Assembly: GCA_003151625.1 (NCBI GenBank)
Contig: PLYC01000020.1
Location: forward strand, 28,981 to 92,980
DNA length: 64,000 bases
Source: Candidatus Doudnabacteria bacterium
GTDB taxonomy: Bacteria > Patescibacteriota > Doudnabacteria > UBA920
Direction: 5' to 3'
A program made the translations under genes and the position numbers. Each line of letters starts with the position of its first letter. The stretch's first letter is position 1. This document shows positions 7,956 to 61,886 of this stretch, in pieces. Below the pieces are notes generated by a model that was not told where the DNA came from, made no database searches, and saw only the letters and a program-made list of their open reading frames with translations.

Positions 7956-8903
7956 TTATAATTTCTTTTTTCGTATCACGTACATCGGCCGGTTTGTGGT
8001 CTCGTTCTGTATATTCTCAATGTAGAGCGCGACAACCCCGAGACACATAAGAACAATGCCGATAAGAAATACATTGATAATGGCAAGCTGGGCGGAACCC
8101 GAAATATGCCAGCTCAAAGCATCATGGAAAACATAACGCTCAAAGAATACCGCTATGCCGAGCAGTCCTGAACAGAAAGTGATAAAAGTCCCAAGGTAGC
8201 CCGCGATACGAAGGGGAAACAGGCTATGGGAAACAAAGGAATACATTGCCAAATGAAAAAGCTTTCCCAAAGAATATTTTGCTTGCCCGTTCGCCCGTTC
8301 GTTCGCGTTAAACTCAATGTATTCCCGCCTAAACCCAAGCCAGTCAATTAGCGCCCTGGTGTTTCTTTGGCGTTCCGTAAAGGTATTAAAAGCATCAGCG
8401 ACCGAGCGGTTAATGAGCCGGAAATCGGTTTCCCGCGGAACCATAGCGGTATTGGAAATCGCACCTATAAGTTTGTAATACAGTGTCGCGCCACACTTCT
8501 TTATCAGGGAATAGCTTTTATTGTTCGCCCGGACGCCCACGACCACCTCTGCGCCATTTTGCCATTTCTCCAAAAAAAGCGGAATAAGTTCGGGAGGATG
8601 CTGAAGGTCGGCGTCAAGCATAATAACGGCGGCTCCGCGGGCATGGCGGATGCCGGCAGAGGTTGCTATTTCCTTGCCAAAATTCCTGGAAAAAGAAATA
8701 AGCTTAACCCGGAGGTCGCTTTGGGTCAATTTTTCTATCTCTGCGGCAGTACCGTCCGCGCTGCCGTCGTCAATAAACAAAAACTCGGCATCGTAGCGGG
8801 AGTTGAGGGATACAAAAACGCCCGTGAGCGCTTGGTGTAAGCGCGACAGATTGTCCTTTTCGTTATAGCAGGGAATAACGACTGAAATAAGCGGATGTTC
8901 CAT
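7956..8903 (-). CDS. polyprenyl-phosphate glycosyltransferase (GtrB/ArnC/DPM1-like GT2 with C-terminal TM helices)
   Basis: 315 aa; ISVVIPCYNEKDNLSRL...IDDGSADGT, MLDADLQHPPE motif, and two C-terminal hydrophobic helices typical of Und-P sugar transferases. Confidence 0.75.
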   Translation of the reverse strand: MEHPLISVVIPCYNEKDNLSRLHQALTGVFVSLNSRYDAEFLFIDDGSADGTAAEIEKLTQSDLRVKLISFSRNFGKEIATSAGIRHARGAAVIMLDADLQHPPELIPLFLEKWQNGAEVVVGVRANNKSYSLIKKCGATLYYKLIGAISNTAMVPRETDFRLINRSVADAFNTFTERQRNTRALIDWLGFRREYIEFNANERANGQAKYSLGKLFHLAMYSFVSHSLFPLRIAGYLGTFITFCSGLLGIAVFFERYVFHDALSWHISGSAQLAIINVFLIGIVLMCLGVVALYIENIQNETTNRPMYVIRKKKL

Positions 8904-10219: not shown

Positions 10220-10263
10220 AGGTGCCTTTAAAAACGAAATTACGGCCCGGGGAATTTATTAGT

Positions 10264-10362
10264 GACGTAGAGCGAGTGAAAGTTATCCGCCTGAGGCGGA
10301 TAACTTTCCGAGCCGAGGAGCTAATACAGGTTCAATACTTCGCAGCTCTGCTTCGAGGAACC
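10264..10362 (+). repeat. intergenic structured repeat element, copy A (conserved 5' box + 13-bp-stem hairpin + conserved ~55-nt 3' box)
   Basis: GACGTAGAGCGAGTG, then perfect hairpin AAAGTTATCCGCC-tga-GGCGGATAACTTT (10279-10307), then CCGAGCCGAGGAGCTAATACAGGTTCAATACTTCGCAGCTCTGCTTCGAGGAACC; near-identical arrangement at 46469-46556 (opposite strand) with a different but equally long hairpin. Confidence 0.6.
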
Positions 10363-10519
10363 TTTATATTTTATTTATATTTTTGTCCAATAATACTAGG
10401 CGAGCAAAAAAGGAAAATTTGTCAAAAAAGTTATCCACAGCCCAGAAAATAGACATTGGTAGTTAAAAGGTTTATAATAAATTAAAGCTTAATAATACTT
10501 ATAACTAATTTATACTACA

Positions 10520-12019
10520 ATGGTCAAAAAAGCAAGAGATTTTTTTTCTAGTGAAACGCGTGTCGCCAGAGTTATTTATGGCGGCTTAATGTTGGTTATT
10601 TTTGGTTTTGTTTTTGGTCCATCGGTGATGGCTCAATTTTATCGCAATACACAGACAACCGGTTATGGCTATGGAACCGGTTATGGTTATGGCTACGGCT
10701 CCGGTCCTGATGGTGGTGCAAATGGATATAGGATTAATGGTAGCGCACCACTTACTGAATACGGCTACGGCTACGGATTTGGAGCGGAACCGGTCGTTGC
10801 GTTTACCAGTACCTATAGCCAGACCGTTACCGTCGGAAGCGTCGCTACCTTTACCGCGCACGCCACGGATACTGATGTCACCACTCCGGGTGTTGCCATT
10901 GCCTATAACTCCAGCGACAAGCCCGCTGGCGCTACCCTCAATTCCTCGACAGGCGCGTTCTCATGGGACACGACCGGAATTACACCTAACCCCTATACTT
11001 TCACGGTGACGGCGGCCGGCAACACCGGCGGCTTGGCTAGCCAGAGTGTCACTATTACCGTCAACGCGGTTTCAAACAGCGGCGGTAATAACGGTAGCAG
11101 CGGCGGCGGTAGCAGCGGCGGCGGCTATGCCATGCCAACGGCCAGTTTTACTACCAATTACAGCCAGATAATTTTGGGACAATCCGCTACTTTGACATGG
11201 ACAACCACTAACGCCACTGCCGTTAGCATCAACCAAGGCATTGGGACTGTCGGTACTTCCGGCACAACAATCGTTACTCCTACCAGCACCACCACTTATA
11301 TTTTAACCGCTACCGGTTCCGGCGGGACCACAACTCAAACGGTAACTGTGACCATAGGTTCAAGTATGGTGGTATCTACTCCTGCAAACCCTTCTTCGGG
11401 GCTCCAATTGCCGGGCGCAGGTGTTGCCGGGGCGCACACTCCGGGATCGGTAATTTTGACCACGGACGGGACAGTTTGGTTCATTACATTGGACAATACC
11501 CGCCGAGCCTTTACTTCGGCCGGAGCGTTTCTGTCATACGGCTACTTGTCATTCAGTCAGGTAGTTGACGCTAACGCGGTGGATTTGACTTTGCCGCAAG
11601 GCACGTTTATTCCTCCTATGGATGGTAAAGTTGTCTGTTCGGACCGCAACGACTCCTATGCCGTAAAAGGCACCTGCTATTTAATAACCAACGGCGAAAA
11701 GGCGGCTTTTACTTCCGCTAAAGTCTTTACCGCTTTGGGTTTTAAGTTCAGCCATACAACCAAAGGCGATGTATCATTCTTGACCCCAGATGCAAATATA
11801 AGCAATGTAGCCTTAGCACACCGCCCGGGCGTATTGGTTAATAACAAAGGCACTGTCCAGCTAGTTGGAATGAACGGCTTAATGGGTATCCCTACCATGA
11901 GTGTGCTTGGTTCTTGGGGCTACACTTTGGCCGACGTTGTCCCGGCCAATGCCGCGGATAAAGCCATAACCCAATCCGGCGTTATGCCTACCCGTATAAC
12001 CGGACAGCTTAGCCCGTAG
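10520..12019 (+). CDS. secreted/anchored surface protein with Gly-Tyr repeats, He_PIG-type putative Ig domain, Ig-like Thr-rich domain and duplicated C-terminal module
   Basis: 499 aa; N-terminal hydrophobic signal/anchor; GYGYGTGYGYGYGSG...EYGYGYGFG low-complexity; ATLNSSTGAFSWDTTGITPNPYTFTVTA (putative Ig domain signature); SSGGGSSGGG linker; internal repeat RRAFTSAGAFLSYGY / KAAFTSAKVFTALGF. Confidence 0.6.
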   Translation: MVKKARDFFSSETRVARVIYGGLMLVIFGFVFGPSVMAQFYRNTQTTGYGYGTGYGYGYGSGPDGGANGYRINGSAPLTEYGYGYGFGAEPVVAFTSTYSQTVTVGSVATFTAHATDTDVTTPGVAIAYNSSDKPAGATLNSSTGAFSWDTTGITPNPYTFTVTAAGNTGGLASQSVTITVNAVSNSGGNNGSSGGGSSGGGYAMPTASFTTNYSQIILGQSATLTWTTTNATAVSINQGIGTVGTSGTTIVTPTSTTTYILTATGSGGTTTQTVTVTIGSSMVVSTPANPSSGLQLPGAGVAGAHTPGSVILTTDGTVWFITLDNTRRAFTSAGAFLSYGYLSFSQVVDANAVDLTLPQGTFIPPMDGKVVCSDRNDSYAVKGTCYLITNGEKAAFTSAKVFTALGFKFSHTTKGDVSFLTPDANISNVALAHRPGVLVNNKGTVQLVGMNGLMGIPTMSVLGSWGYTLADVVPANAADKAITQSGVMPTRITGQLSP

Positions 12020-12044
12020 AAAGTAGAAATTGAGAAATTGGATT

Positions 12045-12358: not shown

Positions 12359-13018
12359 ATGCAAAATAAAATATTAACCGCAGAACAAATTGCAATCCTG
12401 GAATATTTGGGGAAAGACAAATTTTTTGCCAAACAATTTTATTTGACCGGCGGCACCCCATTGGCCGCTTTTTATTTGCGTCATAGGTACAGCGAAGATT
12501 TGGATTTTTTTTCCGAACAGGAAGTAGATCCGGTTTCTGTTAGAGTCTTGCTGAAAGGCTTCAAAGCGGGCGCGGGGATAACGAGAATAGATTTTCAGCA
12601 AAGCATGAACAGGAATTTATTTTTTTTAGAGTTCGGCAAAGATACTCTTAAGACAGAGTTTACTTACTTTCCTTTTCCCAGGATTGAAAAAGGAAGGGTG
12701 AAATACGGCCTAAGCGTGGATAGCGCGATAGACATTGCCGTCAATAAACTTTTTACCATTTATCAGCGCAATAAAGCCAGGGACTACATTGATTTGTATA
12801 TGCTATGTAAAAATTATGAGTTTGGCATAGTGGATTTAATCAAATTGGCCAAATTAAAGTTTGACTGGCATATTGAACCTATACAGTTAGCCACCCAGTT
12901 TTTAAAAGCGGAAACAGCGGCGGAATACCCGAGAATGCTGGTTAAGATGCCGGATGCGGAATGGCAAGATTTTTTTCGTGGAGAAGCAAAAAAAATAAAA
13001 CCGGAAATAATTCAGTAA
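12359..13018 (+). CDS. nucleotidyltransferase of the AbiEii/AbiGii (DUF1814) type IV toxin family
   Basis: 219 aa; FYLTGGTPLAAFYLRHRYSEDLDFFSEQE matches the pol-beta-fold GG[ST]...R.SEDLDF signature of AbiEii toxins. Confidence 0.65.
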   Translation: MQNKILTAEQIAILEYLGKDKFFAKQFYLTGGTPLAAFYLRHRYSEDLDFFSEQEVDPVSVRVLLKGFKAGAGITRIDFQQSMNRNLFFLEFGKDTLKTEFTYFPFPRIEKGRVKYGLSVDSAIDIAVNKLFTIYQRNKARDYIDLYMLCKNYEFGIVDLIKLAKLKFDWHIEPIQLATQFLKAETAAEYPRMLVKMPDAEWQDFFRGEAKKIKPEIIQ

Positions 13019-13023
13019 TTAAC

Positions 13024-13130
13024 GCCAATGCCGCGGATAAAACCATCCAGCAGTCCGGCGTTATGTCTGCCCGCATAACCGGACAGCTTAGCCCGTAGAA
13101 AGTAGAAATTGAGAAATAAGGAAATTGAGA
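13024..13130 (+). pseudogene. diverged duplicate of the last 24 codons + 3'UTR of the surface-protein gene (gene-end remnant flanking the inserted cassette)
   Basis: 13024-13098 encodes ANAADKTIQQSGVMSARITGQLSP* vs gene end ANAADKAITQSGVMPTRITGQLSP* (11945-12019); 3'UTR AGAAAGTAGAAATTGAGAAAT.. also repeated (with a 16-bp internal tandem duplication); roughly 88% nt identity over about 100 bp. Confidence 0.6.
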
Positions 13131-18117: not shown

Positions 18118-18909
18118 ATGAAACTTATAAGTCTAAATTTGTGGGGCGGATATCAGGGCCAGGTTTTGTTCGATTTTCTTAAAGAACAATCCGCGGACAC
18201 TGATATTTTTTGTTTCCAGGAAGTTTTTCGGTCCTCATTTAAGCAAAGCCCTGAAGGTTTTTCGGGTCGAGCAAATTTATTTTCGGAACTGTGCGAATTG
18301 TTGCCGGATCACGAAGGTCATTTTGAAAAAACTTCGCAAAATCACGATAACCTAAAACTAAAAATGGTGGATTTCCCCGTGGACGGAGGGCAGGCGATAT
18401 TCGTAAAAAAAGTTCTTAAGGCCGCGGCTCAAAACACTGTTAAAATTTACGAAGGAATGGGTCGGCCGGTAGATCCAACCAAGGAAAATTTGCCTACCTC
18501 TTTACAAAATGTAGAAATAAAAATAAACGGGAAACTTTTACAGGTTTATAATTATCACGGTATTACTTTTCCCGGCAATAAGCTGGATACGCCCGAAAGG
18601 CTGGAGCAATCAAGTAAAATTGTAAAGGCCATTTCAGTCGCGGAAGGCGAAAAAATTTTGTGCGGGGATTTTAATTTAACAATTAACACCGAAAGTGTAA
18701 ACATTTTGGCGTCCGCGATGAAAGATCTTATAAAAGAGTTTTATATTAAGAACACTCGAAACGAAATTTCCTGGAAAATATATAACAACAAACAGAATTT
18801 TGCGGATTTTACTTTTGTCTCCCTGGGTGTAAAAGCCAAAAATTTTGAAGTCCCATATACTCTTATTTCCGACCATTTGCCGATGATATTAGAGTTTGAT
18901 ATTATATAA
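18118..18909 (+). CDS. endonuclease/exonuclease/phosphatase (EEP) family protein
   Basis: 263 aa; LISLNLWGG...DIFCFQEV N-terminal motif and C-terminal SDHLP motif characteristic of EEP fold. Confidence 0.65.
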   Translation: MKLISLNLWGGYQGQVLFDFLKEQSADTDIFCFQEVFRSSFKQSPEGFSGRANLFSELCELLPDHEGHFEKTSQNHDNLKLKMVDFPVDGGQAIFVKKVLKAAAQNTVKIYEGMGRPVDPTKENLPTSLQNVEIKINGKLLQVYNYHGITFPGNKLDTPERLEQSSKIVKAISVAEGEKILCGDFNLTINTESVNILASAMKDLIKEFYIKNTRNEISWKIYNNKQNFADFTFVSLGVKAKNFEVPYTLISDHLPMILEFDII

Positions 18910-18943
18910 AGGTTCATTGGAGAACTGACAAGGTATTGGACCT

Positions 18944-18971
18944 TTCTTAGCCCCTCGGTTCGGTCCCGCCT
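18944..18971 (+). terminator. weak stem-loop downstream of the EEP gene
   Basis: GTCCCGC-ctcg-GCGGGAC hairpin, not followed by a clear U-tract. Confidence 0.25.
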
Positions 18972-19013
18972 CGGCGGGACACTCGTTCTACGAAACTCAA
19001 TAGACATAACTTT

Positions 19014-21657: not shown

Positions 21658-23118
21658 ATGACTTTCAACTCCTTAGCATTTTTTATTTTCTTCCCGGTAG
21701 TTACCATTTTTTATTTTTACCTGCCTCACAAGTGGCGCTGGCTTTTTTTGCTTTTGGCCAGCTGCGTGTTTTATATGTTTTTAATTCCGGTTTATATTTT
21801 AATTTTGGCCGGAACCATTGTTATAGACTACATTGCGGGAATTTTAATTGAAAATTCCCGGGGGCATCGCAGAAAAATATTTTTAATAGTTAGTATTATT
21901 TCCAACGTAGGGGTTTTGGGATTTTTTAAATACTTTAATTTTTTTACCTCAAATTTTAACCACGTTGCCTCCCTTGTCCACTGGAATTATTCCCTGCCGC
22001 TTTTGGCCATAATTTTGCCTATTGGGCTGTCTTTCCATACTTTTCAGGCCATGAGCTACACCATCGAAGTTTACCGCGGAAAACAGAAAGCCGAGCGACA
22101 TTTTGGAATTTATGCGCTTTATGTTATGTTTTTTCCGCAGTTGGTGGCCGGGCCCATTGAACGGCCGCAGAATTTATTGCACCAGTTTTATGAGCCGCAC
22201 CAATTTGAATACAAACGGGTAACGGACGGTTTAAAGCGCGTTGGCGTGGGGCTGTTTAAGAAAGTTGTTATAGCCGACAGGCTTGCTGTATTGGTGAATC
22301 ACGTTTACGGCAATGTCCACGCTTACTCGGGACCCTCGTTGGTTTTGGCCGTGATATTTTTTAGCTACCAGATTTATTGCGATTTTTCCGGATACTCCGA
22401 CATTGCCATAGGCACGGCCCAGGTTTTGGGTTTTAATTTAATGGAGAATTTTAAGCGGCCTTATTATTCCAAATCCATTGCCGAATTTTGGCGGCGCTGG
22501 CACATTTCACTTTCCAGCTGGTTTCGGGATTATGTTTATATTCCTTTAGGCGGCAGCCGTGTGTCTTTGGGGAAGTGGGTATTCAATACTTTGGTGGTGT
22601 TTATGCTTTCGGGACTTTGGCACGGCGCCAACTGGACATTTGTTATTTGGGGGGGCCTGCACGGCGCCATGATTGCCCTGTCCAGGATTACAGAACCGCT
22701 TCGCCAGAAAGCCGTAAATTTTTTCCATTTAGCACAAACGGAATTTTATAAAATTTTCCAGATTGGGATAACTTTTTTGCTGGTCAGTCTGGCTTGGATA
22801 CTGTTCCGCGCCAATAGCCTGGGCGACGCGGTTTATGTTTTTACCCATTTGCTCGCGGGGAACTGGAATATTTTTAGTCTGAATCAAGTCAGGCTGCTGC
22901 TTGGGGGAATGGGTTTTACGTTTGACGCATTTTTGCTTAGCATTTGCGCTATTTTGGTTTTGGAACTGGTCCAGCTAAAACAGCGGCAAAATTCTATTTT
23001 AGAAGTTTTGGCCGGACAGCCGGTATGGCTGCGGTGGGGAATATACTACGTGGTGGTTTTGGCGCTGTTATTTTTTGGCGTCCAGGGCGGTTCGAAATTT
23101 ATTTATTTTCAATTTTAA
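21658..23118 (+). CDS. MBOAT-family membrane-bound O-acyltransferase (AlgI/DltB-like), copy 1
   Basis: 486 aa polytopic; conserved FHTFQAMSYTIEVYRG, FPQLVAGPIERP, WRRWHISLSSWFRDYVYIPLGG (catalytic His region). Confidence 0.8.
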   Translation: MTFNSLAFFIFFPVVTIFYFYLPHKWRWLFLLLASCVFYMFLIPVYILILAGTIVIDYIAGILIENSRGHRRKIFLIVSIISNVGVLGFFKYFNFFTSNFNHVASLVHWNYSLPLLAIILPIGLSFHTFQAMSYTIEVYRGKQKAERHFGIYALYVMFFPQLVAGPIERPQNLLHQFYEPHQFEYKRVTDGLKRVGVGLFKKVVIADRLAVLVNHVYGNVHAYSGPSLVLAVIFFSYQIYCDFSGYSDIAIGTAQVLGFNLMENFKRPYYSKSIAEFWRRWHISLSSWFRDYVYIPLGGSRVSLGKWVFNTLVVFMLSGLWHGANWTFVIWGGLHGAMIALSRITEPLRQKAVNFFHLAQTEFYKIFQIGITFLLVSLAWILFRANSLGDAVYVFTHLLAGNWNIFSLNQVRLLLGGMGFTFDAFLLSICAILVLELVQLKQRQNSILEVLAGQPVWLRWGIYYVVVLALLFFGVQGGSKFIYFQF

Positions 23119-41066: not shown

Positions 41067-41490
41067 AGCCTCGATAGCAATCACTTTTGCTCAACTGCGG
41101 GTGGGAGATGTGGCGGGTTTTGCACAAAAATTTTCGCCAAAGATGGTCGCCGGTTTTGCCAAACTGTCGGGTAATTATAACCCGCTTCATACCGACCCCG
41201 TTTTTGCCGCGAAAACGGAATTTAAAAAACCAATTGCCTATGGCATGCAGGCGGGCGCGCTTTTTTCCCGATTGCTCGGAATGTATTTACCCGGCAAATA
41301 CGGAATATGCCTGTCACAAACTTTGTCTTTCCATAAACCCATTTATTTTAACACCAAAGTTTCAGTGGAAGGCAAAGTTTTGCAAAAGGTAGAAAGCCTG
41401 CATTTGGCTAAAATTGAAACTAAAATATTTAACTCGGCCGATAATGAGTTATTGGTTTCCGGAGAGGCCTTGGTAAAATTGCTTAAATGA
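41059..41490 (+). CDS. MaoC-like (hotdog fold) dehydratase
   Basis: 143 aa; GNYNPLHTDPVFA motif typical of MaoC dehydratase domain; overlaps ACP gene by 8 bp. Confidence 0.65.
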   Translation: MPKASIAITFAQLRVGDVAGFAQKFSPKMVAGFAKLSGNYNPLHTDPVFAAKTEFKKPIAYGMQAGALFSRLLGMYLPGKYGICLSQTLSFHKPIYFNTKVSVEGKVLQKVESLHLAKIETKIFNSADNELLVSGEALVKLLK

Positions 41491-42974
41491 CTTTTAACTC
41501 TCCCCAGTTTGTACTTTTTTTTATCGCGGTAGCGACTGCCTATTTTTTGATGCCCTACCGTTTTCGCTGGCTGCTGCTGCTGGGGGCCAGTTGCTATTTT
41601 TACATGGCGTTTATTCCGGCCTACGTCCTAATATTATTGGCTATGGTTGTAATAGACTATTTTGCAGGAATATTTATTGAAAAAAGTAGCGGCCACAGAA
41701 GAAAGTTTTTTTTAATTTTAAGTATATGTTCCAATATTGGAATTTTGGCATTTTTTAAGTATTTTAATTTTTTTTCCGTTAACCTCACCGTTTTAGCCCG
41801 ATTCTTGGACTGGAATTATAGTCTTCCGCTTCTGTCTTTGGCTCTTCCGTTGGGTTTGTCATTCCATACTTTTCAAGCTTTGAGCTACACTATTGAAGTC
41901 TATCGCGGCAAGCATAAAGCCGAGCGGCATTTTGGCATTTATGCCCTATATGTCATGTTCTTCCCCCAACTGGTGGCTGGACCAATTGAGAGGCCTCAGC
42001 ATTTATTGCCTCAACTCCACCAAAATCACGATTTTGATTACGAACGGGTTACCACCGGTTTAAAACGCATGGCTTGGGGATTTTTTAAAAAAATGGTAGT
42101 GGCAGACCATCTCGCGATTATGGTTAATATTGTTTACGGCAACCCCCAAAAGTTTTCCGGCCCGGCTTTAATTTTAGCCACTGTCTTTTTCGCTTTCCAG
42201 CTTTACTCCGACTTTTCCGCTTACACGGATATTGCCTTGGGTTCCGCCCAAGTGCTCGGAATAAAACTGGTGGAAAATTTTGAAAGGCCGTTCTTTTCCA
42301 AATCCATTGCCGAGTTTTGGCGCCGCTGGCACATCTCCCTGTCGACTTGGTTCAGGGATTATGTTTTTTATCCGTTGGCTTTTGGTTCCAAAAATACCAC
42401 GCGCCTGAAATTATACTTTGCCATTATGGCCACCTTCCTCCTAAGCGGCCTCTGGCACGGGGCCGGCTGGACTTACGTGGTAATGGGCGGCCTGTACGGA
42501 TTTTTTATTTGTTTTTCCCAGGCCACCAAAGCTTATCGGGACAGTATTATTCATTTTTTTAGACTGGACCGCGCCCCGGCGTTATTGCGGTTGTTGCGGG
42601 TTGGCACGACTTTTGTTTTGGCTTGCATAGCCTGGATTTTTTTTCGCGCGGTAAATTTAACGGATGCCTGGTACATCCTATTCCATTTGGGTTCGGGGCT
42701 GGGTTCTTTTTTGGACCGGTTTTACAGTTATTATGTCTGGAAAAATCTTCTTTCTCTAAATGGTGCAATGACAGACAGGAAAACAATAATAGTTTGTCTT
42801 TTGGGGATAGCGGTAATTATGCTTTCGGAGTTGCTCCAGCGGCAGGCTTCCTTATGGCAGTGGCTGCCTGCGCAACCAGCTTATGCCAGATGGCCTTTGT
42901 ATTACTTAGTCGTGGGTTCTATTTTGTTGTTTGGCGTGTTCGGCGCGAAGCAGTTTATTTATTTCCAATTCTGA
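41487..42974 (+). CDS. MBOAT-family membrane-bound O-acyltransferase (DltB/AlgI-like), copy 2
   Basis: 495 aa; ~65-70% aa identity to copy 1 (FHTFQALSYTIEVYRGKHKAERHFGIYALYVMFFPQLVAGPIERP; WRRWHISLSTWFRDYVFYPL). Confidence 0.8.
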   Translation: MTFNSPQFVLFFIAVATAYFLMPYRFRWLLLLGASCYFYMAFIPAYVLILLAMVVIDYFAGIFIEKSSGHRRKFFLILSICSNIGILAFFKYFNFFSVNLTVLARFLDWNYSLPLLSLALPLGLSFHTFQALSYTIEVYRGKHKAERHFGIYALYVMFFPQLVAGPIERPQHLLPQLHQNHDFDYERVTTGLKRMAWGFFKKMVVADHLAIMVNIVYGNPQKFSGPALILATVFFAFQLYSDFSAYTDIALGSAQVLGIKLVENFERPFFSKSIAEFWRRWHISLSTWFRDYVFYPLAFGSKNTTRLKLYFAIMATFLLSGLWHGAGWTYVVMGGLYGFFICFSQATKAYRDSIIHFFRLDRAPALLRLLRVGTTFVLACIAWIFFRAVNLTDAWYILFHLGSGLGSFLDRFYSYYVWKNLLSLNGAMTDRKTIIVCLLGIAVIMLSELLQRQASLWQWLPAQPAYARWPLYYLVVGSILLFGVFGAKQFIYFQF

Positions 42975-46303: not shown

Positions 46304-46468
46304 TTAAATATATCTGTGTAAAACTTTCTTAAACACAAGCAAAATATCAGCTTTTTGCTTATTTGACGGCAGTTTTTAAAAAGGTATAATTTAAATAGTG
46401 GGTTAAAATAAAGGTTCCTCGCAGCATAACTGACGAGGTATTACTGCAAGGGAACAAACTATCATTTC

Positions 46469-46556
46469 GGAGCAAAGCTCCGAGGTATTGAACCTGTATT
46501 AGCTCCTCGGCTCGGAGATAAACAAGCAAGCTTGTTTATCTCTCTCGCCCTACGTC
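46469..46556 (-). repeat. intergenic structured repeat element, copy D (same family as 10264-10362)
   Basis: Reverse complement reads GACGTAGGGCGAGAG + hairpin GAGATAAACAAGC-aa-GCTTGTTTATCTC (46515-46542) + CCGAGCCGAGGAGCTAATACAGGTTCAATACCTCGGAGCTTTGCTCC. Confidence 0.6.
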
Positions 46557-46692
46557 GCGAATAAAACCATTTTTAAACAAAATAACATTAACCAAAAGAC
46601 GTCCCAGAGCCGCCCCCAGGCGGTTTTAATTTTAAAATAATTAACCTCCCAAAATTTCTTTTAGAAGTTTAGGTGGGTAAAGAACAAAATTT

Positions 46693-47049
46693 ATGACAAA
46701 AATGCAAAAAGTTTGGTTAGGCATATTCCTGGCAATGTTCATCGTGCCAGAGGTGCTGTGGAGTCCAATATATAAATTTTGGTATAGCTTAAAAAATCCA
46801 ACCATTGGCGGGAATTATGCAATTATTAGACAAAATATTTTGGATAACAGCGGAAATGCTGGTCTATGGAGCAATTTGCTTTTACTGCAATTTTTCGGAC
46901 TAGCTTTTGCAGCAATCTATTTGGTAGTTATCAGAAAATCTATTACCCATAAATGGGTTGCTTGGTTGTTCTCTTTGATTTTCATGTTAGCTGGGTTGTA
47001 TGTTTTGTGGACGTATGCGCTATCAACAATAAGTATTAAGATTTTATAA
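46693..47049 (+). CDS. small integral membrane protein (hypothetical)
   Basis: 118 aa, 3-4 hydrophobic helices; low-GC. Confidence 0.45.
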   Translation: MTKMQKVWLGIFLAMFIVPEVLWSPIYKFWYSLKNPTIGGNYAIIRQNILDNSGNAGLWSNLLLLQFFGLAFAAIYLVVIRKSITHKWVAWLFSLIFMLAGLYVLWTYALSTISIKIL

Positions 47050-50068: not shown

Positions 50069-50233
50069 CAGAAGGGATAATAAAATATATTTGATCTCGC
50101 AAAGAGGGCGGAATTCAGGTTTAATACCTCGTGGCTTGTCTCGAGGAAGCTTTATTTTGAGTTTTTATCTTCTTATGTTATAATAATTGGGCGAATAAAG
50201 TAAAAGGAAACAAAAATAGCTACAATGGAGACA

Positions 50234-56932: not shown

Positions 56933-57008
56933 GGGTTGGTAGCTCAGTTGGTAGAGCAGCGGACTCTTAATCCGCTTGTCGAGGGTTCGATCCCCTCCCA
57001 ACCCACCA
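56933..57008 (+). tRNA. tRNA-Lys (anticodon CUU), CCA encoded
   Basis: GGGTTGG/CCAACCC acceptor; anticodon arm GCGGA-CTCTTAA-TCCGC (CUU); T-arm GAGGG-TTCGATC-CCCTC; 3' ACCA. Confidence 0.85.
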
Positions 57009-58515
57009 AGATATTACACAAAGGAATTTTTCCAACTTTCCCAAGGGCTGCGCTTAGCGCAGCCCATTGTGTTTGTGGGGTGAATTCAATTTTTTGATTT
57101 TTTAAAAACAGGTGCGAGCCGAAGATTTTTTGTGCAGCGGATTTTTTGGGGTGCAGTTCGGGCGAAAGCGTTATTTCGCCCAAGTTTTGTGCGTCTTTTA
57201 AGAAGTTTTTGAGAGGTGCGAGCCAAGCGTTCTGCTTTTGTTCCAAGCGGGCTATTTGCTCCGTGAGCGTCTTTTTTTCTAAGGTTAGTTTGTTCTTCTC
57301 CTGTCTGTACTTTTCAGGATCAATATCCTGTTCTAAGTAGCCCTGAAACAGGCGATCCTGCTTGCGGTCAATGTCTTGTATTTTTAACCGCAAGTCCTGG
57401 ACAAAAACCGCGGTGGTTTGCAAGGCTTTATCCTTGTCCCTGTCAGCCATAGCTTCCAACTCCTTGCCCCACTCTTTAGGCATAATAAAGCTTTTAAGGA
57501 CACTAGACAACTGCTTGTCCAGTTCCTCTGATCTGATATGTAGCTGGGAACAGGTAGTGTTTTTTTTGGTACAACGGTAATACAGATAGTGGTGGACATT
57601 ACCATTTTTTTGATGTTTGGTCTTAGTTTCAGCGGTAATGCTCCTGCCGCACTCCCCGCAGTGAAATAGGCCGCATAAGGGTTTCGGGTCACTGACTTGG
57701 CGGCTGGCTTTACCCCGCTGTTTTAAGACTTCCTGTACTTGATCAAATAGTTGCTTGGTAACAATGGGCTGATGTTTGCCTTGGTGGAGTTCCCCGCCAT
57801 ACCGGAACAAGCCACAATAAAAAGGATTGGATAAAATATAACAGGCTTGGTCACGCTTCATGGAATTACCGCCCGCGCTTTGCCAACGCATGGTGGCTTT
57901 GGTTTCAATCCCATTGGCAAAAAAGAATGTAGCTATATCTTCCAAGCTATATCGGCTCTCGGCATACCGTTCAAAGGCTTGTTTGACTATTGGTGCTGTA
58001 TTTTTATCCAGGGTTATAGTCTTGCTCCGTAAGTCATTAAAATAACCCAAAGGAGCAAGACCCGGGTATTCCCCGCGCTTAGCTTTTTGGTAAAGTCCTC
58101 GCTTGGTGTTAGTGCTTAGATCGCGGACGTACTGATTGGCTATGCCGAATTCAACGTTCATGAGCATGACGTTATCGTTAGAGTAATAGCCGCGTTCAGG
58201 AGTTTGAATATGCTTTACAGTTCCTTCCTGTAACAACCATTCAATCTGGGCTGCGTCCACGGGATTGCGGGCTAGCCTATCTAATTTCCAGCAGATAATC
58301 CCAAGAGCCTCACCCTTTTGTATGCGGGCAAGCATATCGGCAAAGGCAGGGCGGCCCGGCCGTTTGGCTGATTGTTTTTCGATAAATTCAGCGGAAATGG
58401 TTAATCCTTGCTCTTTTGCCAGCAATCTTAAAACAGCAAGCTGGTCTTCTATTGACCGGACTTGCTTGTCTTCCACGTCAGTGGATTTACGGGCGTATAA
58501 AAAGTAATTCGACAT
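56944..58515 (-). CDS. large serine recombinase (resolvase/invertase catalytic domain + recombinase + zinc-ribbon/coiled-coil domains)
   Basis: 523 aa; N-terminal YARKSTDVEDKQVRSIEDQ (catalytic Ser region), ICWKLDRLARN, Cys cluster CGLFHCGECG...C; the last ~25 codons run antisense through tRNA-Lys (..GIEPSTSGLRVRCSTN), so the true 3' end is uncertain. Confidence 0.8.
   Translation of the reverse strand: MSNYFLYARKSTDVEDKQVRSIEDQLAVLRLLAKEQGLTISAEFIEKQSAKRPGRPAFADMLARIQKGEALGIICWKLDRLARNPVDAAQIEWLLQEGTVKHIQTPERGYYSNDNVMLMNVEFGIANQYVRDLSTNTKRGLYQKAKRGEYPGLAPLGYFNDLRSKTITLDKNTAPIVKQAFERYAESRYSLEDIATFFFANGIETKATMRWQSAGGNSMKRDQACYILSNPFYCGLFRYGGELHQGKHQPIVTKQLFDQVQEVLKQRGKASRQVSDPKPLCGLFHCGECGRSITAETKTKHQKNGNVHHYLYYRCTKKNTTCSQLHIRSEELDKQLSSVLKSFIMPKEWGKELEAMADRDKDKALQTTAVFVQDLRLKIQDIDRKQDRLFQGYLEQDIDPEKYRQEKNKLTLEKKTLTEQIARLEQKQNAWLAPLKNFLKDAQNLGEITLSPELHPKKSAAQKIFGSHLFLKNQKIEFTPQTQWAALSAALGKVGKIPLCNILVGWEGIEPSTSGLRVRCSTN
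57044..57064 (+). terminator. stem-loop GGGCTGCGC-tta-GCGCAGCCC downstream of the tRNA pair
   Basis: Perfect 9-bp GC-rich stem followed by ATTGTGTTTGTGG. Confidence 0.4.
57090..57150. repeat. 61-bp inverted repeat, left copy (inside the 3' region of the recombinase ORF)
   Basis: TTTTTGATTTTTTAAAAACAGGTGCGAGCCGAAGATTTTTTGTGCAGCGGATTTTTTGGGG is the exact reverse complement of 60844-60904. Confidence 0.85.
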
Positions 58516-60842: not shown

Positions 60843-60905
60843 CCCCCAAAAAATCCGCTGCACAAAAAATCTTCGGCTCGCACCTGTTTTTAAAAAATCA
60901 AAAAC
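60843..60905. repeat. 61-bp inverted repeat, right copy, abutting the holA start codon; preceded by four TGCG(T) heptad repeats (60816-60843)
   Basis: CCCCAAAAAATCCGCTGCACAAAAAATCTTCGGCTCGCACCTGTTTTTAAAAAATCAAAAA; ATG of holA at 60906. Confidence 0.85.
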
Positions 60906-61886
60906 ATGATTACCCTGCTTTTAGGTTCAGACGACTTTTCCAAGAAAAATTTTATAGACGCTCTCGTTTTAAACAAGGGGGCGTTTTTATCCGTGTTTTC
61001 TGAAGCCACCGAAATTCCGGAAACCGGCGCCCTTTTGGAATCGGACTTGTTTTCCAAACCCAAGGTTTTTGTTTTGCAAAATATAATGCCGGATTTTGGG
61101 TCTGTGAATTTGGAGAAGTGTATTTTAACCCTAAATCAAATTGTAATTTCCCTAAAGTCCCTGGACAAAAGAAAGAAAGAAAACAAGGAACTGCTCTCAA
61201 ATCCAAAAATTACTGTAAAAGAATTTTCTTTGCCGCACGGCAGGGAGTTGGACAAGTGGATACAAAACCGCGTTTCTTTTTACAAGGGTAAAATTTCGCA
61301 AAACGCGACCGAAGCTTTGGCTGTCCGTTTGGGTCGGGATAACGGCAAGGAAACCAAAGTCGCAGGCAAGGTTATAGCCGTGGAAGAAGTTTTTGATTTG
61401 TGGCAGGCGGACAGCGAAATCCAAAAGCTTTTGGCCTTTGCAGAAGGAGGGGAAATTAGCCGCCAGGCAGTTTTGGATTTGGTCCCGGAGAACGCGGAAG
61501 TGGATGTATTTGATTTAACCAATGCCATTGCCGATAATCAAAAACAAAAAACTATGGAACTTTTGGGGCGTTTTTTAAAAGAGCAAACCGGCGGTGACGA
61601 GAAGGGCTCCATAATCCAGTTAAACGCCTTGCTTGGCGAGCAGTTTCGCAATGTAGCCATAGTTCAAGATTTTATGGCCGTAAAAAAACCCGAAAATGAA
61701 ATTTTGGACGCTACTGGTTGGAAACCAGGCAGGTTGTTTGTAATGAAAAAAATTGCCTCGCGTTTTCCCGCGAAAAAAATTATCGATCTGCTTAACAAAC
61801 TGGAAGCCCTGGATGAAGAACTAAAAAGTTCCAGCATCCCTCCCAGGGTATTGCTAGATTTAATTTTATCGCAACTATTTATTTAA
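60906..61886 (+). CDS. holA: DNA polymerase III delta subunit-like (HolA)
   Basis: 326 aa; LLLGSDDFSKKNFIDAL N-terminus and overall length typical of delta subunit; moderate confidence. Confidence 0.5.
   Translation: MITLLLGSDDFSKKNFIDALVLNKGAFLSVFSEATEIPETGALLESDLFSKPKVFVLQNIMPDFGSVNLEKCILTLNQIVISLKSLDKRKKENKELLSNPKITVKEFSLPHGRELDKWIQNRVSFYKGKISQNATEALAVRLGRDNGKETKVAGKVIAVEEVFDLWQADSEIQKLLAFAEGGEISRQAVLDLVPENAEVDVFDLTNAIADNQKQKTMELLGRFLKEQTGGDEKGSIIQLNALLGEQFRNVAIVQDFMAVKKPENEILDATGWKPGRLFVMKKIASRFPAKKIIDLLNKLEALDEELKSSSIPPRVLLDLILSQLFI

Follow-up and report, generated by a model that had tools for sequence, protein, structure and literature searches.

A family of gene-less, hairpin-bearing mobile repeats in Candidatus Doudnabacteria and other Patescibacteria

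The stretch of DNA that we analysed (the window) comprises 64,000 nucleotides (nt) of contig PLYC01000020.1 from a Candidatus Doudnabacteria bacterium (assembly GCA_003151625.1), and it contains a family of short, structured intergenic repeats. The initial annotation had described these as a repeat family with conserved boxes and hairpins, and all of the sequence features behind that description were found in place. There are two intact copies in the window, along with one degenerate copy and one remnant of a 3' half. The repeats are mobile DNA, with defined ends, a defined target, a conserved folded structure and an internal box with complementarity to the target motif as well as to the element's own ends.

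Copies of the repeat in the window

Copy 1 is a short form of 107 nt on the plus strand (10261..10367, 76.9 bits with our covariance model). It directly follows the hexamer TTTATT (10255..10260), which lies outside the element. The 5' box AGTGACGTAGAGCGAG (10261..10276) is followed by a variable hairpin, P1, with a perfect stem of 14 bp and the loop TGA (10278-10291 / 10295-10308). Then come a central box, CGAGC CGAGGA GCT AATA CAGGTT (10309..10332), and a 3' domain (10333..10367) that consists of a terminal hairpin (CTTCG...CGAGG) and the 3' terminus AACCTTTAT. The first three bases of the 5' box pair with the GCT of the central box, and the last four bases of the flanking hexamer pair with its AATA, as judged from the comparison with an empty site and from the fold of the single-stranded DNA (ssDNA). 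In other words, GCTAATA in the central box pairs with the left junction, where TATT meets AGT. Another part of the central box, AATACAGGTT, has its complement at the element's 3' end.

Copy 2, on the minus strand, is a long form of 153 nt (46407..46559, 88.4 bits) with its left-flank hexamer TTTATT at 46560..46565. Its P1 is a perfect 13-bp stem with the loop TT (46542-46530 / 46527-46515), and the sequence is unrelated to that of P1 in copy 1. The central box CGAGCCGAGGAGCTAATACAGGTT (46491..46514) is followed by an internal hairpin A (TCGGAGC TTT GCTCCGA, 46467..46483) and by a terminal hairpin B (CCTCG...CGAGG) with the 3' terminus AACCTTTATT (46407..46438). Hairpin A is supported by the fold and by compensatory changes; one of its pairs is CG in 5 cases, GC in 4 and UA in 1 across genomes. 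The long form differs from the short form of copy 1 by approximately 50 nt, which lie between two modules that each consist of AATAC plus a hairpin.

The other two copies are damaged. Copy 3 is a 3'-half remnant on the plus strand (GAGGGCGGAATTCAGGTTTAATACCTCG..CGAGGAAGCTTTATT, 50104..50156) without a 5' domain. Its sequence CAGGTTTAATACCTCG, at 50116-50131 with 1 mismatch, lies upstream of a gene for a pilB-like ATPase (Pfam T2SSE), which is where a partial copy had been claimed. Copy 4 is a degenerate short form on the minus strand (18906..18998) that was detected by nhmmer (E 9.5e-5) and by the covariance model (23.5 bits, E 1.4e-4). Its boxes are mutated (GAGTTTCGTAGAACGAG ... CGAACCGAGGGGCTAAGAAAGGTCC), its 3' end is GAACCTTTAT and its left flank is TCTATT (18999-19004). 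The hairpin of copy 4 has 7 bp (TCCCGCC GA GGCGGGA) and is the third distinct hairpin sequence in the window.

The shared boxes are far from what chance would give. The 5' box GACGTAGRGCGAGWG occurs exactly twice in the window, at 10264-10278 (plus) and 46542-46556 (minus), against an expectation of 0.11, and the 25-mer CCGAGCCGAGGAGCTAATACAGGTT of the 3' box also occurs exactly twice, against an expectation of 0. Over 50 nt, the 3' boxes of copies 1 and 2 match at 92%. The initial annotation was thus right about both boxes and about hairpins of unrelated sequence at the same position. The three sites that it listed are real, although the units are slightly longer than was given, with TTTATT as the left bound and ...AACCTTTAT(T) as the 3' end, and it had overlooked copy 4 as well as the minus-strand orientation and the long form of the copy near 46.5 kb.

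Two further copies, each with its own distinct hairpin, lie a short way beyond the window on the same contig, which is 140.8 kb long and of metagenome origin, at L225 about 8450-8628 (minus) and at L226 19352-19462 (plus). Altogether the contig has five copies with a 5' domain and five different hairpins, plus one remnant, across roughly 72 kb, a density of one per 15 kb or so. A gene for a HepT-like toxin (L226 19411-19770, minus) extends, as called, with its 3' end into the L226 copy, and this insertion may have altered the C-terminus of the toxin gene.

Ends, target and folded structure

Units start directly after ...TTTATT, with A, C or G followed by GCGACGTAGAGCGAG, and they end in ...RACCTWTAT(T). 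The left end AGCGACGTAGAGCGAG and the right end taken as its reverse complement (AATAAAGGTTCCTCG) are unrelated, so there are no terminal inverted repeats. A filled and an empty site can be compared in two related contigs (L043 and L083, 82-87% identical). The filled site reads ...GAAAGAT TTTATT, then the element (AGCGACG...GGAACCTTTATT) and then TAAATAC, and the empty site reads ...GAAAGAT TTTATT TAGATAC, which means that a single TTTATT is present in both states. A candidate second filled/empty pair lies at L083 6030 and L043 about 7840. When the window was compared with other genomes, at 84-94% identity, similarity stopped at the ends of the element, give or take a few bases. For copy 2 it is confined to 46403-46569, and the longest matches span approximately 46404-46566.

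The target motif is evident from 29 left flanks whose retrieval did not rely on it: TTATT is present in 28-29 of them and a T at position -6 in 26. In 39 elements, the left or the right hexamer deviates from TTTATT, and in none of these (0/39) do the two match. Because of these counts, and because the 3' hexamer co-varies with an internal box (see below), we conclude that the left hexamer is the target and not one half of a duplication. We considered a classical MITE (the miniature transposable element with inverted repeats) derived from a DDE transposase and rejected it, as there are neither terminal inverted repeats nor target-site duplications.

In some cases the elements form head-to-tail arrays (L143, L154, L141, L135, L014), in which the TATT end of one unit directly joins the next unit. 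The tandem units are identical whole elements without spacers; copies otherwise occur singly and not as inverted pairs. We also considered guide arrays of the TIGR or CRISPR type, and rejected these because the units are identical and spacerless and no Tas or Cas gene is nearby. Besides intact copies there are decayed ones, such as copy 4, and truncated ones, such as copy 3. At least 21 of 152 insertion sites are on the T-tail of a terminator-like hairpin with a perfect stem, and this accounts for the intergenic location of the element at operon boundaries.

For the structure, we aligned 94 distinct members with a covariance model, R1. P1 is a hairpin of 12-14 bp in which the structure is conserved and the sequence is not. 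All 12 of its pairs have changed on both sides, and 96.8% of the cells are paired, which bears out the earlier claim that structure is kept through covariation. The outer helix, with 90.3% of cells paired, is made by four flank bases and three element bases (TATT and AGC) with the complementary GCTAATA that lies 3' of the variable hairpin. Its element bases co-vary with the box, in the combinations AGC/GCT (62), GGC/GCC (4), GGC/GTC (3), TGC/GCA (1) and AAC/GTT (1). The variable pair of the helix is A-U in 61 cases, G-C in 8, C-G in 1 and U-A in 1. The commonest exception is CGC/GCT, with 9 cases. An ungapped alignment of 35 members, evaluated for the whole 5'-domain model, was 94.7% paired with 13 pairs changed on both sides, and 0 of 500 shuffles equalled it.

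Between the outer helix and P1 there is a middle section, GACGUAGAGCGAG / CGAGCCGAGGA, which we infer from its sequence to be a continuous helix of three CGAG/CGAG tandem G·A motifs, closed by C-G pairs and interrupted by two single-base bulges. In copy 1, the 5' box beyond its first three bases would be the 5' strand of this putative G·A-rich helix. The 5' domain would then be one continuous irregular hairpin from the outer helix to P1. The Watson-Crick pairs of the middle section are almost invariant and give no covariation signal. The 3' domain adds one to three further hairpins with compensatory changes. Folding copy 1 as ssDNA reproduces the model, with z = -4.5.

Two kinds of catalytic RNA were tried and rejected. 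The GAGCC...GGUUC pairing that recalls domain V of group II introns is confined to one subfamily, and no match was found to hammerhead, hatchet or other self-cleaving cores. We also observed that some loci (L006, L032, L023, L070, L094, L046, L121, L125) carry an extra short GC-rich palindrome between CGAGCC and GAGGAGC of the central box, for example CCTGCCTGCCGGCAGG or GACCGCAGTGTCCGCAGACTGAGC. The same palindromes recur across otherwise different subfamilies, which suggests that they are a second, smaller inserted module.

The GCTAATA box also has a relationship with the other end of the element. In its extended form, AATAYAGGTT, it is complementary to the 3' end AACCTTTATT. With up to 2 mismatches allowed, the 3' end contains a sequence complementary to the element's own box in 69% of 100 elements, compared to 17.5% with shuffled boxes and 23% with boxes swapped between elements. 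Box and 3' hexamer co-vary by subfamily, as AATATAGTCC goes with GGACTATATT and AATATAGGCC with GGCCTATATT. Since GCTAATA pairs with the left junction and the extended box pairs with the 3' end, the 13-nt box GCTAATAYAGGTT has its complement in the joined ends (...AACCTTTATT followed by AGC...), and the target motif is complementary to it as well. The sequence across the junction of joined ends would be …CCUUUAUU followed by AGCGACG….

A box with these properties could be the splint of an element that lives at the RNA level, where a ribozyme or an RNA ligase would cleave the ends and join them into a circle and DNA copies would be made by reverse transcription. The complementarity to the joined ends is what such a splint would need, a conserved core that is not helical borders on variable helices, an arrangement known from small ribozymes, and the tandem arrays can be read as rolling-circle products. 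However, there is no match to a known ribozyme family, and the proteins that recur in the neighbourhood include no reverse transcriptase. Nearly all stem pairs are Watson-Crick, with only about 3% of P1 pairs being G·T. By inspection, the loops are not of the GNRA or UNCG kinds that folded RNAs commonly have, and C-GNA-G motifs, which are typical of stable DNA mini-hairpins, are frequent. We believe that an RNA-level element is a remote prospect.

The same 5' domain can be compared to the recombination sites of integrons. The element might be a substrate that a tyrosine recombinase uses as folded ssDNA, in the style of integron attC or of the attP hairpin of CTX phage, with a 5' domain that mimics attC in having a 7-bp R-box-like helix with the crossover point. 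The layers are indeed similar: a short outer helix that contains the junction, then a spacer that is unpaired or non-canonical, then a short inner helix and an extrahelical base, with a variable stem-loop at the tip. In both systems recognition would go by structure and not by sequence, and the strand that bears the junction is re-formed when the ends are joined. The complementarity of the box to the joined ends resembles that of R'' to the reconstituted R' of a circular cassette, and tandem arrays of units would also fit. But the R''/R' boxes RYYYAAC / GTTRRRY are absent from the element consensus, as is the AAC/GTT core, and we found no cassette open reading frames (ORFs) and no attI. There are no integrase genes at the 155 other loci of the family that we examined, and the copies are single and scattered, with no cassette arrays beside attI/intI. 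The conserved target bases are all 5' of the junction, which is typical of HUH enzymes and not of crossover cores. We consider a tyrosine recombinase improbable.

Hosts and neighbouring genes

A genome scan with an exact match to 22 nt of the 3' core, using one genome per species, found 35 loci, all of them in bins of Patescibacteria/Doudnabacteria and with up to 8 loci per bin. A scan of metagenomes with the 5' box found at least 120 stretches or contigs that carry it, and these members are more diverse, with units of 60-290 nt. The typical element is about 95-175 nt long and gene-less. Copies in one bin are near-identical and several are at contig ends. In viral contigs, the 3' core had 0 matches, the 15- and 16-mer matches to the box were due to chance, and the covariance model gave three weak GC-rich hits only. 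The initial annotation had named a lack of further copies and of covariation as what would count against the family, and the outcome here is clearly in favour of a real one.

We searched Rfam (Rfam 15) with the window copies and typical members, both at the gathering threshold and at E = 10. No family was assigned and only tRNAs pass; the best matches below threshold are chance matches to hairpins. Assignment to a known ubiquitous motif, which had been named as the outcome that would speak against a new family, is thus not what we found. No searchable paper contains the box sequence, and keyword searches of the literature for CPR (Candidate Phyla Radiation) repeats or MITEs returned nothing relevant. 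Because of these three results the family appears not to have been catalogued.

The initial annotation had placed the copies in promoter-proximal regions of surface-structure operons, and a wider look did not support a specific link of this kind. Neighbours at the 155 other loci are ordinary housekeeping genes, such as those for ABC transporters, DnaA/DnaN, YidC, ClpP, TsaD and RelA, and when we clustered the 1436 ORFs at these loci the recurrent families were all housekeeping. Pilin genes recur at 10 of the loci and PilB at 7. The best reading is that closeness to surface-structure genes is incidental and that the element lands in T-rich intergenic DNA, often in the T-tails of terminators. 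Separately, we observed that 8 of the 155 loci (L030, L038, L068, L079, L104, L105, L126, L142) carry dnaA (seven) and/or dnaN (six), often together with yidC/rnpA and pilB, where the expectation for a random 8-kb window is about 1% by a rough estimate. Orthologous retention near dnaA-dnaN-pilB was rejected as an explanation because the elements in L038 and L079 sit in different spacers of the syntenic block and are independent insertions close to the origin region.

As to orientation, copies 2 and 4 each lie antisense to the genes on their two sides. Copy 1 lies upstream of a promoter-like site at 10450-10478, and copy 2 lies antisense and downstream of another at 46363-46390. The latter, on the plus strand, is near consensus (TTGACG, a 16-nt spacer and TATAAT, with 11/12 matches) and would transcribe antisense through copy 2 into an ORF of 118 amino acids (aa) at 46693-47049.

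These observations bear on whether the repeats are structured RNA genes or cis-regulatory RNAs (small RNAs, attenuators or mRNA stabilisers) that are multicopy through a cellular function of the RNA. The strong covariation of the helices is what one would expect of an RNA, as are boxes that are near-invariant over very divergent hosts. G·U-type pairs are tolerated (for example, there are 13 G·U at one outer-helix pair), a U-rich tract follows the 3' hairpin, and 85 elements point the same way as their upstream gene vs 50 that do not. However, Rfam gives no match for the element, also with the cutoff at E = 10, nothing promoter-like is conserved upstream, and the flanks are unrelated except for TTTATT. 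We found no terminator-like site inside the copies, and on the window's contig 3 of the 5 copies with a 5' domain are antisense to the genes on either side. An RNA gene is also hard to reconcile with the existence of filled and empty sites, with units in tandem, with copies that have decayed or been cut short and with bursts of near-identical copies in one genome, and it would not need an outer helix that uses flanking target bases. Of the functional options that had been offered, the small RNA and the transcription attenuator are not supported, since the copies occur in either orientation to their neighbours, lack an internal terminator-like site and an Rfam match, and include degenerate and truncated ones; a REP/MITE-like element comes closest and was right in spirit. 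We judge RNA genes to be an improbable explanation on the whole.

The window has some other repeats and possible insertions besides this family. A 66-nt inverted repeat (57086-57151 / 60844-60909, 97% complementary) surrounds approximately 3.7 kb that encode a large serine recombinase (56944-58515, minus), a LexA-like S24 peptidase, a metallo-beta-lactamase-fold protein and one ORF without an assigned function. The 3' end of the recombinase gene overlaps tRNA-Lys (56933-57008), and the segment adjoins tRNA-Arg and tRNA-Lys. An integrated element or an invertible one is a possible reading. A 94-nt direct repeat (11945-12038 / 13024-13117, 90% identical) surrounds an AbiEii toxin gene (12359-13018) and duplicates the 3' end of a gene for a He_PIG-domain surface protein (10520-12019), and the region looks like a cassette of approximately 1.1 kb that was inserted with duplication of the gene end. 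Finally, 21818-22180 and 41647-42009 are 74-77% identical and lie within ORFs of approximately 490 aa (21658-23118 and 41487-42974), which for this reason appear to be paralogues.

How the element may move

Our favoured explanation, to which we give a probability of roughly 0.55, is that the family is a non-autonomous, gene-less mobile element that is widespread in Patescibacteria (CPR) and is moved as a folded single strand, as in IS200/IS605 or REP systems. The lack of inverted repeats and of a target duplication, a motif on the left side only, hairpins at the ends and the internal complementarity together lead us to a non-autonomous element moved in this way. Excision and insertion would both take place on a folded single strand. 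The box inside the element might be a guide, choosing TTATT targets and bringing the two ends into line, by analogy to the pairing of guides with cleavage sites in IS200/IS605 and in gene-less derivatives of these elements (PATEs, REP/REPIN). The enzyme would act in trans, and it would most likely be an HUH-type transposase of ssDNA. The family is best filed with the hairpin-ended bacterial mobile elements that have no inverted repeats, among which its self-complementary guide design is unusual.

IS608 inserts 3' of TTAC, and the TTAC stays in the left flank; its cleavage sites and its target are recognised via base pairing with internal guide bases, and the intermediate has a circular junction (PMC5934647). 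Like IS200/IS605 and palindrome-associated transposable elements (PATEs), our family lacks both terminal inverted repeats and a target duplication, inserts exactly 3' of a short motif that is kept in the left flank, and has subterminal hairpins at both ends (P1 with 12/12 covarying pairs, the right hairpin with compensatory changes). As in IS200/IS605, internal sequence is complementary to the putative cleavage sites and to the target, where the complementarity and covariation are observed and cleavage itself would be deduced from them. The order of guide, hairpin and cleavage site is that of the right end of IS608 (PMC5934647). The pairings are long here, of 7 and 10 bp, unlike the 4 nt of IS200/IS605.

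With REP and REPIN sequences, the family shares being short, gene-less, palindromic and intergenic, often downstream of genes, and having a GTAG-containing tag (here GACGTAG) 5' of a hairpin. As in the REP/REPIN-RAYT system, the presumed enzyme would be trans-acting and possibly a domesticated single-copy one (PMC3733652). The units differ in being modular and 95-175 nt long, whereas REP palindromes have 20-40 nt. The GTAG is 8 nt from the foot of the hairpin, inside the putative G·A-rich helix and a larger conserved domain, and our units differ further in their sharp ends and defined target motif. Unlike REPINs, the copies do not form inverted pairs, and no RAYT gene flanked by copies was found among the recurrent neighbours at the 155 loci. 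BOX elements of Streptococcus pneumoniae consist of conserved 5' and 3' modules with a variable number of internal hairpin modules between them. Our family resembles BOX in its modular build, strong predicted folding, intergenic location and lack of a known transposase, although a relationship in sequence is not expected. It differs in that BOX is not known to have a defined target motif or guide-like complementarity to its own ends.

Several results weigh against movement as a single strand by an IS200/IS605-like enzyme. There was no transposase of any kind, and no other recombinase, beside the elements at the 155 loci. Specifically, neither a Y1 HUH transposase (TnpA) nor an autonomous relative with the same ends was found in or beside these loci or in the window, unlike what is seen with IS200/IS605. 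A phmmer search of the six-frame translation of 1.1 Mb around the elements found no match to IS200 TnpA, although this is a weak test. A pattern search of the same 1.1 Mb found no TnpB-like zinc-ribbon ORFs; the matches to the pattern look like MutM-, PriA-, LeuRS- and DnaJ-type proteins by inspection. No internal ORF was seen in any copy, and apparent autonomous elements of 400-1400 nt turned out to be false right-end calls that extend into ordinary genes.

The architecture and orientation of the copies add to these points. In contrast to IS608, both ends share one guide box, which follows the left hairpin on its 3' side. IS608 also has similar hairpins at its two ends, where those of our family are unrelated to each other and the left one is free to vary. 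IS608 and ISDra2 have a strong lagging-strand bias. No clear bias for a replication strand is seen in our family: orientation is mixed on the window's contig (-,+,-,-,(+),+), it is 4 vs 4 near dnaA on other contigs when tallied by hand, and the bias relative to local gene direction is only modest (67 vs 36). G·T exceeds A·C in the helices by only 57 to 31, so the specificity for a single strand is weakly shown. Lastly, the boxes are near-invariant across hosts in which DnaA is 40-54% and DnaN 29-51% identical, leaving the closest pair aside, and PilB has a median identity of 41%. Such invariance is unusual for the ends of a selfish element and would also fit a conserved cellular function.

The enzyme search also touches on a different use of the IS200/IS605 relationship. 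The repeats could be gene-less derivatives in which the 3' domain is an omega/reRNA scaffold for a TnpB or IscB nuclease encoded elsewhere, with TTTAT(T) as the adjacent motif and a guide that starts in the right flank. The adjacent motifs of TnpB are similar to the T-rich motif found 5' of the left end, the conserved multi-hairpin 3' domain ends exactly at the element boundary, and gene-less IS605 derivatives are already a known kind; a preprint on such nucleases is PMC10055086. But there is no TnpB- or IscB-like ORF in the 1.1 Mb, and in many copies the 3' domain is one short hairpin, which is too small for a scaffold. The curated families of Rfam include the IS605-orfB and HEARO motifs, and no curated RNA family was matched. 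We find the scaffold explanation very improbable.

Returning to movement as a single strand, a bolder version would do without an IS200-type enzyme altogether. The family could be a new self-guided mobile unit in which the 13-nt box is both a splint for the joined ends and the reader of TTATT. The near-invariant helix of three tandem G·A motifs would be a handle for a conserved, CPR-wide host enzyme, or would take part in catalysis by the nucleic acid itself. Such a unit would be a long-lived, vertically co-inherited replicator of the reduced CPR genomes and not a derivative of a known insertion sequence. We regard this as a speculative and rather unlikely proposal.

CPR/Patescibacteria genomes are very small, and few mobile elements are known from them so far. 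The element breaks assemblies and inflates intergenic regions, which matters for binning and annotation, and covariance model R1 is a direct route to annotating such elements. A single box that is complementary to the target motif and to the joined ends, beside a conserved and apparently G·A-rich helix, recalls the base-pair-guided targeting of IS608. The enzyme that recognises the element, once it is found, could reveal a new activity in the processing of single-stranded DNA (or RNA).

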